DNA from: Escherichia phage tuntematon
Sequence record: NC_052660.1
DNA: 64,000 bases
Strand: one strand, 5' to 3'
The position numbers were made by a program, and so were the translations under genes. Positions 24,940 through 39,342 of this stretch are shown in pieces; positions within the stretch are counted from its first letter, which is position 1; every line of letters starts with the position of its first letter. The notes beneath the pieces were generated by a model. The model saw only the letters and a list, made by a program, of their open reading frames with translations. It was not told the origin of the DNA and did no database searches.

Positions 24940-24967
24940 TTGACATGCTTTTTAGTCCTGTTAAGAT
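24940..24967 (+). promoter_or_regulatory. sigma70-like promoter of rightward block
   Basis: TTGACA 24940-24945, 16-nt spacer, TAAGAT 24962-24967; RBS GAGAGGAG, ATG 24998. Confidence 0.6.
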
Positions 24968-24997: not shown

Positions 24998-25426
24998 ATG
25001 CAAAACATGACTTGGACCGAAGCTAAAGAAGCGATGCAGAATGGCAAACGTGTGAAGCACGAATACTTCTGTAGTGATGAGTGGTTTGAGATGCAATACG
25101 GTGTTATTCTGGATGAGCATGGCTACAATATGTCAAACTGGTTCCGAGGGGAAGCTTGGCAAGAACAGGGTTGGTTTGTAATTGAAAAAGAAGACAGTAA
25201 GGAAGAAGGCGTGTTGTCTAATGTAGAACGCGAGATGAGGGAAACAAAGATACCTGCTTTGGATTTTGTATACCTGGAAGAACTTGTGGCAGCATCTTTT
25301 GTAGCAGGAAACCTTTGGAATACACCTGTTAGCCGACTGGAGAACCAAAATAACCCGTCTGCTCGTAATCACAAGCTTTATAAGGGTAAAGGTCACAACA
25401 AATTAAAGAAAGGAAAGAAGAAATGA
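24998..25426 (+). CDS. DUF2829-like protein (Tad2-like candidate) with basic C-terminal tail
   Basis: N-terminus MTWTEAKEAMQNGKRVKHEYF resembles the xFxEALEALKxGKKVRRxGW signature I associate with DUF2829; tail KLYKGKGHNKLKKGKKK. Confidence 0.5.
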   Translation: MQNMTWTEAKEAMQNGKRVKHEYFCSDEWFEMQYGVILDEHGYNMSNWFRGEAWQEQGWFVIEKEDSKEEGVLSNVEREMRETKIPALDFVYLEELVAASFVAGNLWNTPVSRLENQNNPSARNHKLYKGKGHNKLKKGKKK

Positions 25427-25572
25427 TCTACAAAAACAAGTTCACTGGTTGTCTCCGTAAATTTATCGATAAGAAAGGGTTTGTTTCTCTTGACAAGGGT
25501 GTTACGTGGGTGCAAAATGGCACTTCAGAACAACTGATCAAGGCTTTACCTTACTATGAGGAGGTTTTATGA
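25423..25572 (+). CDS. candidate 49-aa protein
   Basis: Hand-translated MIYKNKFTGCLRKFIDKKGFVSLDKGVTWVQNGTSEQLIKALPYYEEVL; ATGA overlaps on both sides; not in ORF track. Confidence 0.4.
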   Translation: MIYKNKFTGCLRKFIDKKGFVSLDKGVTWVQNGTSEQLIKALPYYEEVL

Positions 25573-25829
25573 CACTTTATCACGTAACTACAGAAGGCGA
25601 CTGTGAAGGCCGCACTACAAAAGATTTGGGGTATGTTGAAGCAGATTCACCTGAACATGCTATCAAATACCTGCATTCCATCGGGAAGTATGCGGGTTAT
25701 GAGTATACTATCTACGAGGTTGAAATTATTAACCTTATACAAGTGGCAACTCCTATGGCAGAGTTGAAACATCTTAAGGCAAAAGTAAGACCTGGTGTAG
25801 TGTCCGATTACAAAGGGGAAGTAAAGTGA
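25569..25829 (+). CDS. hypothetical protein
   Basis: ORF-track ORF; RBS GAGGAGG. Confidence 0.55.
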   Translation: MTLYHVTTEGDCEGRTTKDLGYVEADSPEHAIKYLHSIGKYAGYEYTIYEVEIINLIQVATPMAELKHLKAKVRPGVVSDYKGEVK

Positions 25830-26038
25830 GTGGATGGATTAAAGTATCTGGTACCGAGAATGTTCCTATCGGAGAGTGGCTTGTAATCATGGCAAACGGC
25901 AAGAAGGGATTCTGTGAAGTTAACAAAACACGCAATGGCACGATAGCTGTTATCAATGGTCATTTTTATTTTGACTTGGCACCTGTGATCGCATACCATG
26001 CACTACCAACATATGAAGAGGAGATTAACAATGGCTAA
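25826..26038 (+). CDS. hypothetical protein
   Basis: ORF-track ORF, GTG start overlapping previous stop. Confidence 0.5.
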   Translation: MSGWIKVSGTENVPIGEWLVIMANGKKGFCEVNKTRNGTIAVINGHFYFDLAPVIAYHALPTYEEEINNG

Positions 26039-26354
26039 CAAAGAACCACACGTATATACTGCACTGGTAAAGCACTTGAACAAAGAACGTAACAGGATCA
26101 TTGCAGATTATCGTAAATTTAAACGTAGTAGTCTAAATCGTAAATACATGCCACATGCAGCTTTTGACGCTACACGTGCAGTATTTCGTGCAAAGATTGC
26201 GGAAATGGATAATCTGCTTAAGCTTGCACGATTATCTATTCAGGCATCCAAAGTAACAGGGGTCACTCACTTCTTTGACTTCGATACTAAAGCACTATAT
26301 GCACCAGAAGCAGGTGAACAATTGATTTATCTACTTACCAAAAATAAGTGTTGA
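26031..26354 (+). CDS. hypothetical protein (107 aa)
   Basis: Start moved to ATG 26031 (MANKEPHV) behind RBS GAGGAG. Confidence 0.5.
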   Translation: MANKEPHVYTALVKHLNKERNRIIADYRKFKRSSLNRKYMPHAAFDATRAVFRAKIAEMDNLLKLARLSIQASKVTGVTHFFDFDTKALYAPEAGEQLIYLLTKNKC

Positions 26355-26523
26355 CTTTTTTCAAAAAATATGCTACCCTAACCCCGAAGGGTCGAGCGAT
26401 AGCGAGTATAGATTATGTAATAGATTAATCTCTATCGTTAGATGTTCGAAGAATAGAGATTTAAGTACTTGTTCTTATCGGTAGATGATCGTAAGATCAA
26501 GAACAATAATAGGAGAGTATGTT
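26355..26523 (+). promoter_or_regulatory. structured intergenic region with repeats and hairpins
   Basis: Hairpin acccgaagggt; 8-bp inverted repeats atctctat/atagagat and ttgttctt/aagaacaa; direct repeats tagatta x2. Confidence 0.35.
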
Positions 26524-26721
26524 ATGTTAGTCAGTGAAATACTACCTGACTCTAATGGTAATCAGATCACTGTTGATTGGTTTCCTGGTACTGGTACACT
26601 AGATCTAACTGCTGAATGGTCTGGTGATATTTATGGAGAAGGTGTATTATCATTGTCTACAGAACAAATGATCATCCTTCGTGACTTCTTAATTAGTTTA
26701 GATCTAGGAGAAAACAAATGA
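26524..26721 (+). CDS. hypothetical protein (65 aa)
   Basis: Start moved to ATG 26524 (MLVSEIL) behind RBS AGGAGAG. Confidence 0.5.
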   Translation: MLVSEILPDSNGNQITVDWFPGTGTLDLTAEWSGDIYGEGVLSLSTEQMIILRDFLISLDLGENK

Positions 26722-26987
26722 GTAATACTTCTGTTGAGTTTATCGAGAAATCCCCTGTTCCAAAGTTATACCGTTTATCTGAAATTGAACCTATGTCTGT
26801 TTTCTACTACTACGATTCAGAAGTAAGTGAACAAGAACGGGACTACTACTTAGCTACAGATACAGGTGCAGTGTGCTTAACAGGTTCTCGTGCAGGAGAA
26901 TACATTGTGACTAGTCGTTTTAATGAAGCAGATTACTGTTGGGCTAAGGTTGAAACTAAGATTGTCATCAACATCACTAATCATTAA
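26718..26987 (+). CDS. hypothetical protein
   Basis: ORF-track ORF, ATGA overlap. Confidence 0.55.
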   Translation: MSNTSVEFIEKSPVPKLYRLSEIEPMSVFYYYDSEVSEQERDYYLATDTGAVCLTGSRAGEYIVTSRFNEADYCWAKVETKIVINITNH

Positions 26988-27009
26988 GACTAATCTGACA
27001 AAGAGTTAC

Positions 27010-27039
27010 TTGACATGTGCAAAGCTCTTTGTGTAGAAT
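27010..27039 (+). promoter_or_regulatory. sigma70-like promoter flanked by inverted repeat
   Basis: TTGACA 27010-27015, 18-nt spacer, TAGAAT 27034-27039; inverted repeat caaagag (about 26998) / ctctttg (27025-27031) brackets the -35. Confidence 0.5.
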
Positions 27040-27069
27040 AAAGATTCACTTACTAAGGAGATTTTATAA

Positions 27070-27267
27070 ATGGCTACAAAGAAACAGAAAATGAAATGTC
27101 TTACTCTCACTGAACTGGGTCAAGCTTCCAACTGCGTTACTGTTGGTAAGATTTATTCTACAGTTCTTGATAAAGACAACAACAGTTTTACTTTCAAAGA
27201 TGATAACGGAAACCCTCAAGTTGGAATCTACCCTTCCTGTGCTTTTGGTACTTGGGAAAAAGTGTAA
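27070..27267 (+). CDS. hypothetical protein
   Basis: ORF-track ORF; RBS AAGGAG. Confidence 0.55.
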   Translation: MATKKQKMKCLTLTELGQASNCVTVGKIYSTVLDKDNNSFTFKDDNGNPQVGIYPSCAFGTWEKV

Positions 27268-27310
27268 CTAATTAGAGGGTATACTTGTAAACAAGATTAA
27301 GGAGGCATTT

Positions 27311-27484
27311 ATGGGAGATAAACAAAGTAACATCCGTTACGCGCTTTATGGAAGAATGGGTGCAGATTGTGAATGGATGCTTCTGTCGCAACGTATACCC
27401 TCTTACAAAGAGGCTCTTGAAAAAAGAGACTATTACAAACAAACATGGCGTTTTGTCATTTGTAAACACTATTTGGAGGCGTGA
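27311..27484 (+). CDS. candidate 57-aa protein
   Basis: Hand-translated MGDKQSNIRYALYGRMGADCEWMLLSQRIPSYKEALEKRDYYKQTWRFVICKHYLEA; RBS AAGGAGGC; not in ORF track. Confidence 0.4.
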   Translation: MGDKQSNIRYALYGRMGADCEWMLLSQRIPSYKEALEKRDYYKQTWRFVICKHYLEA

Positions 27485-27792
27485 TGAGTACATTATCATT
27501 AGCAGTTATGGTACATCAACAGTATGAAGAAGCTGTGAAAGATTCAGAAAACCCTTCTACATTGGTGTTTGAAGATCGGACTGGTCTTAAATGGGTAGAA
27601 TCTGGGGATGAACTCTACTTTTGGTATCCACAAGGTTGCACAAGTAATTCTAATTTGTATAGTTATGAATTGGAGTATCGTGCGCCTGTAGACGAAGATG
27701 ATAATTACATCATGTATTATGTTAATAATGGTTGCGGTGAAACGTTTAATGTAGTATTCTCTAAAGCCTTGAAGTCCGACGAGGAGATGTAA
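27484..27792 (+). CDS. hypothetical protein, tandem paralog 1
   Basis: TLSLAV...AVKD...YRAPV.EDD.YIMYYVNNGCGE aligns with 27792..28097. Confidence 0.55.
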   Translation: MSTLSLAVMVHQQYEEAVKDSENPSTLVFEDRTGLKWVESGDELYFWYPQGCTSNSNLYSYELEYRAPVDEDDNYIMYYVNNGCGETFNVVFSKALKSDEEM

Positions 27793-28097
27793 TGCGGCAC
27801 AATACGACTTTAAGTTTGGCAGTTGCAGCCCACATGCTGTACAATGATTCTGTGAAGGATGAGTTGTCGCCTGTGAGTTTAGCTTTCTATCTGATAGATA
27901 GGGATTGGATGTTCTCTGGTGAGGATGAAATCTACTACGTAAATTCACGCGGTTTTATTGAAAGTTTTGAACTTGAACATCGCGCACCAACAGCAGAAGA
28001 TGATCGTTTTATTATGTTCTGTGTAAATGATGGTTACGGAGAGGTATATGACGTAGTATTCTTCAAAAACCGACAGAAGACTGAAGAGGAATTCTAA
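27792..28097 (+). CDS. hypothetical protein, tandem paralog 2
   Basis: TLSLAV...SVKD...HRAPTAEDDRFIMFCVNDGYGE aligns with 27484..27792. Confidence 0.55.
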   Translation: MRHNTTLSLAVAAHMLYNDSVKDELSPVSLAFYLIDRDWMFSGEDEIYYVNSRGFIESFELEHRAPTAEDDRFIMFCVNDGYGEVYDVVFFKNRQKTEEEF

Positions 28098-33856: not shown

Positions 33857-33863
33857 AACTTAA

Positions 33864-33886
33864 AGGCGCACTTTGCGCCTTTTTTG
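33864..33886 (+). terminator. rho-independent terminator
   Basis: aggcgca-ctt-tgcgcct then TTTTTT. Confidence 0.8.
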
Positions 33887-39041: not shown

Positions 39042-39263
39042 ATGGGTGTTTTTGCAGGTATTGTTGCAGTGGTAAGCTTTTTTGTTATTGCTTTTATGCT
39101 TAGTTTGATTCCAGCTTGGTTACTGTTGCTGGCTTACAACTATGTTGCTGAAGTTATGGGTCATGCAGATATCACTGTCCCAGTAACCTTCTGGACCGTG
39201 GTTTGTGTTTCGTTTATTCTGGCTGTATTACGAGGAATCTTTTCCTCTCATTCAACAAAATAA
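39042..39263 (+). CDS. small membrane protein
   Basis: Two hydrophobic helices. Confidence 0.5.
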   Translation: MGVFAGIVAVVSFFVIAFMLSLIPAWLLLLAYNYVAEVMGHADITVPVTFWTVVCVSFILAVLRGIFSSHSTK

Positions 39264-39342
39264 GTGTTGACATAGTTCTTAAAAAGAGTAAGATATATCA
39301 CATGAAGCGGGGAATAGTTCCCCGCAAAGAGAGGAGAAAAGA

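Follow-up and report, generated by a model that had tools for sequence, protein, structure and literature searches.

The gap between two genes at positions 26355-26523 of a 64,000-nucleotide stretch of Escherichia phage tuntematon (NC_052660.1; this whole stretch is called the window below) holds a short cassette, namely a promoter-like site and a small covarying hairpin just past it, which we call the signature hairpin. The cassette occurs three times in the genome of the close relative Escherichia phage SKA64, is kept between phage genera, is also present in bacterial chromosomal islands, and contains neither an open reading frame (ORF) nor a terminator. It is probably a shared control signal, and we tentatively favor the view that it is an internal promoter and that the start of its transcript folds into a cis-acting mark of the nut/put kind, to be recognized by a trans-acting factor. 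The original prediction had taken the whole gap for a structured leader of 170 nucleotides (nt); this did not hold for the leader as a whole, and what stood was its first ~60 nt, including a hairpin at 26393-26406 that had not been listed.

Promoter, signature hairpin and their conservation

The promoter-like site TTGACT-17-TACCCT of the original prediction was present with its 17-nt spacer, and its geometry was kept comparatively; the TG ahead of the -10 hexamer had been missed. As expected of sigma-70 promoters of the extended -10 type, a -35 element near TTGACA, a spacing of 17 ± 1 bp and TGn before TAnnnT were all found at 26351-26379. A plain consensus promoter scan did not list the site because TACCCT fits TATAAT at just three of six positions, and the support for the predicted promoter is comparative. 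Specifically, TTGAC(T/A) or TTTACT lay at an equal distance in 15 of the 17 distinct cassette copies aligned, and TG and TACCCTA were invariant columns of this alignment, TACCCTA having been imposed by the search pattern and TG not. Transcription would start at 26386, and the seventh to ninth base past the hexamer was, by reading, a purine preceded by a pyrimidine in nearly all copies. Given that the promoter-like site is kept comparatively, the gap would be the 5' leader of a transcript beginning inside the operon. Reliance on host-type promoters, many with an extended -10, was reported for the related phage rV5 (PMC3606486). A hairpin within the promoter spacer (T-run/A-run) was rejected, since slid controls scored equally, indicating an effect of composition only. 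TTGAC(A)-N15-TGnTACCCTA was also evident as a promoter in numerous unrelated families of viral contigs (IMG/VR contigs L065-L184, among the matches listed), where A+T-rich repeats or other hairpins usually came next and the CGAG hairpin was absent.

The signature hairpin, CGAG-C-GATA-G-CGAG, has as its core a mini-hairpin of the GCGNNAGC type, clamped by the tandem G.A of CGAG/CGAG and a C-G pair, and it occurs once in the window. Two G.A juxtapositions lie between the outer C-G and the inner G-C, in the context CGAG/CGAG, which we take to be the classic one for tandem sheared G.A pairs. The C-G, G-C and C-G pairs of the core were invariant in the 17-copy alignment. Note that the core was imposed by the search pattern and the flanking stem pairs were not. 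In these flanking pairs, 81% of the cells of the 17 copies were paired, compared with 32-44% in slid controls, and the covariation score was 0.305 versus 0.162, a value of 0.305 being reached by none of 500 shuffles. The pair types comprised CG, AU, UA, UG and GU. The structure is strand-specific: on the opposite strand the G.A juxtapositions turn into C.T, and the several U.G pairs of the stem would become A.C mismatches. Among 42 distinct pattern matches, which include probable chance matches and a minority that break the GN(N)A rule, the commonest loops were GAA, GCA, GATA and GGA, and GTA, GGGA, GAAA and GAAT were seen as well. The core also conforms to the rule for DNA mini-hairpins, in which a GNA or GNNA loop containing a sheared G.A pair is closed by two G-C pairs. 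In most copies, the signature hairpin starts 0-7 nt from the predicted 5' end. This conserved, covarying hairpin has no protein-coding explanation.

By similarity, the window is a Phapecoctavirus, phAPEC8-like, of the subfamily Stephanstirmvirinae. The 3 kb around the gap showed 99.4% identity to SKA64 and 91-99% identity to ~120 further phage records, mostly Phapecoctavirus. In seven Phapecoctavirus relatives the gap was 98.8% identical; the idea that it is better kept than its coding flanks within the genus was rejected, since the whole block 25183-27222 was 97-100% identical in the seven relatives. Divergence was confined to the blocks 25003-25182 and 27223-27822, where 15-37% of positions differ among relatives, which indicates mosaic replacement. 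An insertion of ~320 bp was also seen within this 3 kb in some relatives.

Between genera, a gap after the same upstream ortholog was also found in phi92, phiWec179, Klebsiella phi1_175008 and Citrobacter phage Tr1. Here 26347-26425 retained 75-83% nucleotide identity while the flanking DNA was unalignable, and the cassette was one of very few local stretches that blastn still aligned between genera. The common part comprises TTGACTTT, an A/T-rich spacer, (C/T)ATGCTACCCTAA, 6-14 variable bases and CGAGCG-(1-3 nt)-GCGAG. Past the signature hairpin the sequence was lineage-specific, and each genus had some hairpin before the ribosome-binding site. The functional core is thus likely to be the ~60 nt of promoter and signature hairpin, not the whole leader. 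The check proposed with the original prediction, conservation and covariation in related phages, was thereby borne out: promoter and hairpin core are kept between genera, and the stem covaries.

In SKA64, copy A of the cassette corresponds to the gap studied here, and copies B and C lie outside the window; a second copy inside the window was sought and none was found. Copy B is followed by ~125-135 nt of structured sequence reaching to the stop codon of a convergent gene. Beyond copy C lie two A+T blocks of ~40 nt, GATC-/GTAC-rich repeats, a second promoter, small genes and a tRNA cluster, surroundings that resemble an origin or control region. Classes A, B and C were also found in three other lineages from IMG/VR, giving four Stephanstirmvirinae lineages in all. 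The three copies of one genome have the promoter and hairpin core in common, and the bases between and around these differ. The gene downstream of the cassette varies between lineages.

A pattern scan of IMG/VR further revealed the cassette, with the extra common bases TGTGCTACCCTAA, in contigs L038, L042 and L048. One island type is represented by contig L038 and by loci in the chromosomes of Citrobacter sp. OP27, two Buttiauxella and one Scandinavium. In it, an integrase is followed by the cassette, a conserved non-coding stretch of ~800-950 nt that is rich in C and poor in G, another promoter, small ORFs and a DUF5906 primase-helicase-like gene. Only the 44-nt cassette matched the phages (91% to copy C of the Klebsiella phages and 89.5% to Tr1). 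The untranslated C-rich, G-poor stretch looks like a Rho substrate, and the islands may be satellites or parasites of Stephanstirmvirinae phages. Mimicry of a host sequence was rejected, as neither the cassette nor the island leader had a match in 5,426 complete E. coli genomes. Note that counts of TACCCT promoters and of the bare hairpin in public collections are counts among the matches listed, with numerous chance matches, and that most of the 38 genome matches and the G+C-rich single viral matches are probably due to chance, as are most other matches of the scans in view of how large the collections are.

Related motifs were also seen elsewhere. An unrelated viral family (L010 2033-2161 and ~20 similar IMG/VR contigs including L011, L012 and L021) carries two copies of TACCCTATCCCCCCC(A/T)A-CGAGCG(A/G)AGCGAG in inverted orientation, separated by ~100 nt and immediately ahead of the genes for the large terminase and the portal; this motif has no -35 or TG, and its kinship to the cassette is uncertain since the search imposed TACCCTA. 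In Synergistetes, Chloroflexota, Terriglobia and Ardenticatenaceae (L205, L207, L210, L222), we observed ATTCC-GAGCGNAGCGAG-GGAAT, a tandem-G.A mini-hairpin with a 5-bp clamp, usually with GTC before it and once as an inverted pair, which has the look of repetitive extragenic palindromes (REP) or miniature inverted-repeat transposable elements (MITE). As these REP- or MITE-like repeats carry a tandem-G.A mini-hairpin, the hairpin type is reused widely. In addition, the 37-kb viral contig L045 has, from 8187 on the minus strand, a non-coding CA-rich region with one forward and several reverse copies of CGAGCGAAGCGAG, two of the reverse copies each being preceded by ACATACTAT(A/G)TA.

Other leader structures and genomic setting

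The coordinates of all features are given in Table 1. The other elements named in the original prediction were found as well: the hairpin quoted as acccgaagggt is ACCC-CGAA-GGGT (hairpin 1), the quoted string having dropped one c; the two 8-bp inverted repeats, at 26428/26453 and 26469/26499, are beyond chance; and the duplicated tagatta lies in the A+T-rich spacer. The inverted repeats and tagatta motifs are real but specific to Phapecoctavirus, other genera having different hairpins there.

Table 1. Coordinates of the cassette, the remaining leader features, the flanking genes and further cassette loci. Positions refer to the window unless a contig or genome is named.
Feature	Position	Strand	Remark
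-35 hexamer TTGACT	26351..26356	+	overlaps stop codon of upstream gene (26352-26354)
Extended -10, TG-c-TACCCT	26371..26379 (TG 26371-26372; hexamer 26374-26379)	+	invariant A next, at 26380
Predicted transcription start, G	26386	+	7th base past -10 hexamer; canonical sigma-70 spacing
Hairpin 1, ACCC-CGAA-GGGT (contains CCGAAGG)	26381..26392	+	straddles predicted start
Signature hairpin, CGAG-C-GATA-G-CGAG	26393..26406 (core GCGATAGC 26396-26403)	+	13 nt past promoter
A+T-rich spacer with two copies of ATAGATTA	26407..26427 (26408-15, 26420-27)	+	direct repeat
TAGATTA copies	26409 and 26421	+	sequence
Hairpin 2, ATCTCTAT / ATAGAGAT	26428..26460 (arms 26428-35 / 26453-60)	+	inverted repeat
Mini-hairpins in loop of hairpin 2	ATC-GTTA-GAT 26434-43; TTC-GAA-GAA 26445-53	+	
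Hairpin 3, TTGTTCTT / AAGAACAA	26469..26506 (arms 26469-76 / 26499-506)	+	ends 4 nt ahead of Shine-Dalgarno
Mini-hairpins in hairpin 3	ATC-GGTA-GAT 26477-86; TGATC-GTAA-GATCA 26486-99	+	
Shine-Dalgarno AGGAG and start codon 26524	26511-26526 (Shine-Dalgarno 26511-15)	+	sequence
Upstream gene, phAPEC8_00237 homolog	26031-26354	+	annotated without function
Downstream gene, phAPEC8_00236 homolog, 65 amino acids	26524-26721	+	PHROG 25113; annotated without function
Copy B, SKA64 ~46.95 kb	L008 40927-41095	+	opposed to surrounding leftward genes; no ORF
Copy C, SKA64 ~6.75 kb	L008 ~800-480	-	~480-nt gap at divergent transcription point
Island locus, Citrobacter sp. OP27	L198 3050-5332		same family: L197, L219, L223, L200, L038

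The gap contained three perfect 8-bp inverted repeats, compared with 0.16 in shuffles (P ~0.01), a number reached by only 1.6% of 169-nt tiles of the window, and TAGAT occurred four times, a count reached by 0.13% of tiles. The RNA folding z was modest and about equal on the two strands (-2.4 on the plus and -2.1 on the minus strand). The units 26433-59 and 26476-502 (27 nt) of hairpins 2 and 3 form a direct duplication of 74% identity. The arms of hairpin 2 were fully complementary in this phage only; all seven aligned relatives differed at 26454, and the three relatives read there had C, resulting in an A.C mismatch. In phiWec179, two pairs of hairpin 2 were altered on both sides with pairing kept (A-T to G-C and C-G to T-A). 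The site of hairpin 3 is marked as a predicted terminator in the record of phage ASO2A; no U-tract follows hairpin 3, the next sequence being TAATAGGAG, and a scan for terminator-like sites (hairpin plus U-tract) on the plus strand of 26355-26523 found none. In place of hairpin 1, other cassette copies had different small palindromes (ACCT-GAA-AGGT, CAC-GAA-GTG, AACAT/ATGTT). A single aligned helix for this start-site palindrome was rejected, since 48% of cells were paired and the register varied between copies; to the eye the palindrome appears real, and it is not scorable.

Besides the signature hairpin, five C-G-closed GN(N)A hairpins (CCCGAAGGG, ATCGTTAGAT, TTCGAAGAA, ATCGGTAGAT and TGATCGTAAGATCA; six in total) lie on the plus strand within 26383-26499 (117 nt), where ~0.04 would be expected, and the minus strand of the same interval had zero. 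The whole window had 20 such hairpins on the plus strand, and window-wide they were not enriched (39 versus 39.2 in shuffles). The cluster was strong only in copy A of Phapecoctavirus; in other copies the signature hairpin was accompanied by at most one hairpin of this kind. A long-range interaction between the signature hairpin and the hairpin 2 loop, which appeared in the minimum-energy fold, was rejected because it was not kept in phi92.

The gap runs from the TGA stop codon of the upstream gene, which falls within the -35 hexamer, to the ATG at 26524. The sole small ORF that might be hidden in it is an in-frame extension from 26485, which has no ribosome-binding site, and this candidate was rejected. 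ARAGORN predicted no tRNA or tmRNA gene in the window. Rfam (Rfam 15) gave no match at gathering score in the whole window, two matches only at chance level (E 2.2 and 7.7) in 26300-26560, and nothing for copy B or the island leader. Genes are oriented leftward as far as 24883 and rightward from 24998 to ~60165, and the later part of the rightward block encodes a helicase, ribonucleotide reductases, a T7 gp4-like primase-helicase and a PolA-type polymerase.

Further observations concern the surroundings. Additional early-region promoters were seen at 24940 and 27010, and a further internal promoter (TTGACA-16-TAAGAT) lies at 39257-39342, where the hairpin GCGGGGAATAGTTCCCCGC and a ribosome-binding site come after it; the bases AAAATAAGTGTTGAC precede both this promoter and that at 26351. 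The segment 25426-25566 (141 nt, within a 49-amino-acid gene) was 93% identical to phi92 while the surrounding DNA was unalignable, a degree of conservation that is unusual for so small a gene. Between two reductase genes of the rightward block, at 33862-33882, we noted a strong hairpin, AAAGGCGCACTTTGCGCCTTT, that resembles a two-way terminator and has T-runs on both strands. Lastly, near-identical Phapecoctavirus sequence was found in deposits that carry the names of Campylobacter, Acinetobacter and Pseudomonas phages and in the genome bins 'Proteobacteria bacterium' and 'Lysobacteraceae' (L195, L209), the odd labels probably reflecting mislabelled hosts or contamination.

Interpretation of the cassette

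An exact short module stands at three fixed places and also in islands, with nothing kept after it, as would be expected of a cis-site for a common trans-acting reader. In the favored reading, host sigma-70 polymerase would start at ~26386 from the extended -10 promoter lying within the end of the upstream gene, and RNA bases +8 to +21 would fold into a C-G pair, tandem sheared G.A, G-C and C-G pairs and a GAUA loop. This hairpin would act as a cis mark on the transcripts or elongation complexes that come from these particular promoters, reinforced in copy A by the five further C-G-closed GN(N)A hairpins. A trans-acting factor would read the mark, as for lambda nut/boxB or HK022 put, and would protect against termination, Rho or decay along lengthy untranslated leaders and on into downstream genes, replication genes included. 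This reading was ranked first because U.G pairs recur, because the hairpin sits at the 5' end and because the leaders that follow are long and prone to Rho. The proposal of an RNA regulatory element in the original prediction is thus partly upheld by the conserved covarying hairpin, and among the variants it named, the protein-binding leader remains the best guess.

The reader would most likely be phage-encoded. The upstream gene always precedes the copy A cassette and is syntenic in the five lineages compared; its protein is 32-46% identical in amino acids between lineages, basic (isoelectric point 10.0-10.6), and carries the conserved motif DFRxFKRxxxNR. By position, this basic protein is the only candidate. 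It was missing from the chromosomal islands, and no relatives of it were found in IMG/VR. The idea that gp237 is a recognizable RNA-binding or transcription protein was rejected, with no Pfam, PDB-sequence or fold match, and a resemblance of gp237 to DksA2 (E 1.9) was dismissed as what any helical hairpin gives. To our knowledge, no polymerase or sigma factor of its own has been recognized in the phAPEC8/phi92 group.

Several points weigh against the favored reading. Promoter activity and start site are predictions from sequence. The bases flanking the signature hairpin are unpaired in the window's copy, and the set of loops (GAA, GCA, GGA, GTA, GATA, GTTA, GAAT) fits the DNA mini-hairpin rule better than the RNA rule GNRA; r(GCGAAAGC) melts at 39 °C, compared with 76.5 °C for the DNA form (PMC13037366). 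No boxA-like sequence (CGCTCTTA / TGCTCTTTAACAA) was found in 26340-26530, no N-, Q- or RfaH-like protein was identified, and the predicted fold of the upstream protein is a generic helical hairpin with no significant structural match. Copy B would transcribe against a 34-kb gene block and needs an explanation of its own. Furthermore, the complementary arms in several copies, the ACCC of the window included, begin right past TACCCTA, upstream of the predicted start. As hairpin 1 straddles this start, it cannot fully form in RNA from this promoter, and pairs that reach upstream of the start would be possible only in read-through RNA or in the non-template DNA strand. These arms are the main point of contention between RNA and DNA readings.

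The cassette may instead signal as single-stranded DNA, which we consider unlikely. Firing of the promoter would free the plus strand, on which very stable, SSB-resistant mini-hairpins (GCGATAGC, CCGAAGG and ATC-GTTA-GAT among them) would fold and stabilize an R-loop or load or prime the T7 gp4-like primase-helicase, the three cassettes being transcription-activated origins or priming sites comparable to those of T7 and T4, G4 oriC and RSF1010 ssiA/ssiB. The loops do obey the rules for mini-hairpins of DNA, in which GTTA and GAAB variants are tolerated, the ssiA hairpin of RSF1010 has the sequence CCGAAGG and that of the St-1/alpha3 origins GCGTTAGC, and six hairpins lie on one strand within 120 nt with none on the other; this clustering is, however, strong only in copy A of Phapecoctavirus. 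The position of the complementary arms upstream of the predicted RNA start, the absence of a gene for copy B to serve, the two ~40-nt near-pure A+T blocks with GATC-/GTAC-rich repeats past copy C, the encoded T7-like replisome (primase-helicase and PolA) and the inverted pair that the motif forms in the unrelated viral family all point the same way. Copies C and A also lie at, or 1.4 kb from, the two divergence points of gene orientation and GC skew, but the skew merely tracks gene orientation and was rejected as an origin marker, and a T7 primase site, GGGTC at 26389-93, was likewise discarded, being found in this genus only and missing from the others. The plus strand is single-stranded only by hypothesis, and the U.G/G.T pairs of the closing stem, which recur in independent lineages, are cheap in RNA and costly in DNA. 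Less likely still is a wider version, in which firing of the poor -10 (TACCCT) would expose the mini-hairpins for a phage replication or transcription protein, the cassettes being origins or switch points and the islands of Citrobacter, Buttiauxella and Scandinavium carrying 44-60 nt as a sensor with which to detect infection by these phages and to exploit it, in a satellite-helper link.

A plainer account, which we regard as doubtful, is that of an ordinary internal promoter with generic hairpins, duplicated together and without a dedicated reader. The 5' stem-loop would shield the mRNA from RNase E and RppH, the later hairpins would be processing or 3'-protection sites, and sharing with islands would reflect recombination of a handy module. 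Mobile modules of a promoter and a stem-loop have a precedent in the promoter early stem-loop (PeSL) cassettes that T4-like phages carry (PMC4122927). The plainer account is consistent with early-region promoters at about every kilobase (24940, 27010 and 39267, the last with its own hairpin), with the hairpin lying within a few bases of the predicted 5' end, with a downstream gene that varies between lineages as at a recombination joint, and with TTGAC-N15-TGnTACCCTA occurring without the hairpin in many unrelated viral contigs among the matches listed. On the other hand, a mere stabilizer need not keep CGAG-C-GN(N)A-G-CGAG and TACCCTA amid 32-46% protein identity between lineages, the window's copy leaves seven unpaired 5' bases and has no flanking stem, and copy B stabilizes no mRNA. 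Improbable, in our view, are trans-acting small RNAs of ~120-140 nt, alike in a 5' handle that binds protein and differing in a body that would pair with targets or serve as a decoy, the RNA of copy A doubling as an mRNA leader. Copy B, a stand-alone unit of ~125-135 nt ending near the convergent stop codon in all four lineages, would suit such a role, as would the layout that copies A and B share, in which the signature hairpin precedes two further hairpins; against it, no terminator closes any unit, the bodies are not kept between genera, and no target or Rfam relative was found. An attenuator, a further suggestion of the original prediction, would terminate transcripts from upstream or from this promoter conditionally within the leader. 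We give it very little credence, because no plus-strand hairpin with a U-tract exists in 26355-26523 and no alternative pairing is kept (the complementarity of 26392-26408 to 26426-26442 is missing from phi92), even with the U-rich run past the signature hairpin in copy C and contig L048 (UUAAGGUUUUAGG; AAUAGUUUUAGUUU) and the terminator annotated at hairpin 3 in ASO2A on its side.

Phages of the phAPEC8/phi92 group are widely used therapy candidates. A 60-nt cassette that hardly changes at three fixed places of every genome, amid neighbor proteins of 32-46% identity, is the clearest handle yet on the timing of phage transcription and replication, and it offers three precise sites for mutation, one candidate reader and a 14-nt hairpin for use as bait. 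Should the hairpin be read as RNA, virulent myoviruses would possess a nut/put-like system that is new; should it be read as DNA, it would provide the first example of the long-known mini-hairpin DNA motif at work on the non-template strand of a host-type promoter. The island copies suggest an unrecognized satellite or parasite of the phage group.

Comparison with known systems

The ops/JUMPstart element, a 12-14-nt leader element of long operons, forms a small hairpin in the non-template strand, where RfaH reads GGTAG. AGCGATAGCGAG agrees with the ops sequence GGCGGTAGCGTG at 9 of 12 positions. However, comparison with the ops pattern (GGCGGTAGnnTG, with invariant GGTAG) spoke against membership, since the central bases vary among copies (GAA, GCA and GGGA loops) and so does the length. 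The primary origin of T7 and oriF/oriG of T4 are transcription-primed origins without a conserved hairpin. The cassette resembles them in having a promoter followed by an A+T-rich stretch, in occurring several times per genome and in the T7-like primase-helicase and PolA of its phage; it differs in its conserved hairpin, and an origin role for it is hypothetical.

In PeSLs, which occur only in T4-like phages and there in many copies, the terminator precedes the promoter (PMC4122927, PMC2839356). Like them, the cassette is a small repeated promoter/stem-loop module beside variable genes and possibly a recombination joint. In contrast to PeSLs, it consists of a promoter and then a hairpin, occurs in three copies without a U-tract in another phage group, and keeps its sequence across genera and in bacterial islands.

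The DNA mini-hairpin motif GCGNAGC / GCGNNAGC described by Hirao tolerates GAAB and GTTA variants. Known instances are those of RSF1010 ssiA (CCGAAGG), of the promoter of the N4 virion RNA polymerase and of the complementary-strand origins of G4, St-1 and alpha3 (PMC13037366). The signature hairpin follows its rule exactly, is strand-specific and belongs to an intergenic hairpin cluster beside a predicted start of nucleic-acid synthesis. The known cases lie on single-stranded templates or in an extruded template-strand hairpin, whereas here the genome is double-stranded and the hairpin is part of the non-template strand at a sigma-70 promoter, and the CGAG/CGAG tandem G.A clamp is outside the described motif. 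A promoter of the N4 type did not fit, as the stable hairpin belongs to the strand on which -35 and -10 read in sense, not to the template; no giant polymerase of the N4 type is annotated in the ~147 kb of SKA64 inspected, and the largest ORF of the window encodes 890 amino acids.

The nut site of lambda consists of boxA and a boxB hairpin with a GAAAA pentaloop and is read by N, and the put site of HK022 has two stems in ~65-70 nt. The cassette has no boxA, and tandem G.A with a GN(N)A tri- or tetraloop takes the place of the GAAAA pentaloop; of the two stems of put, only the first hairpin, ~20-25 nt, is conserved in the cassette. Moreover, its phage is a 150-kb virulent myovirus, not a lambdoid phage, and is known here from sequence. 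With nut and put the cassette nevertheless shares a short conserved hairpin close to the promoter, its GNRA-like loop, the presence of several copies in one genome amid differing surroundings and the absence of an ORF, and the proposed passage of transcription across terminators and long leaders would make it a functional counterpart of these sites.

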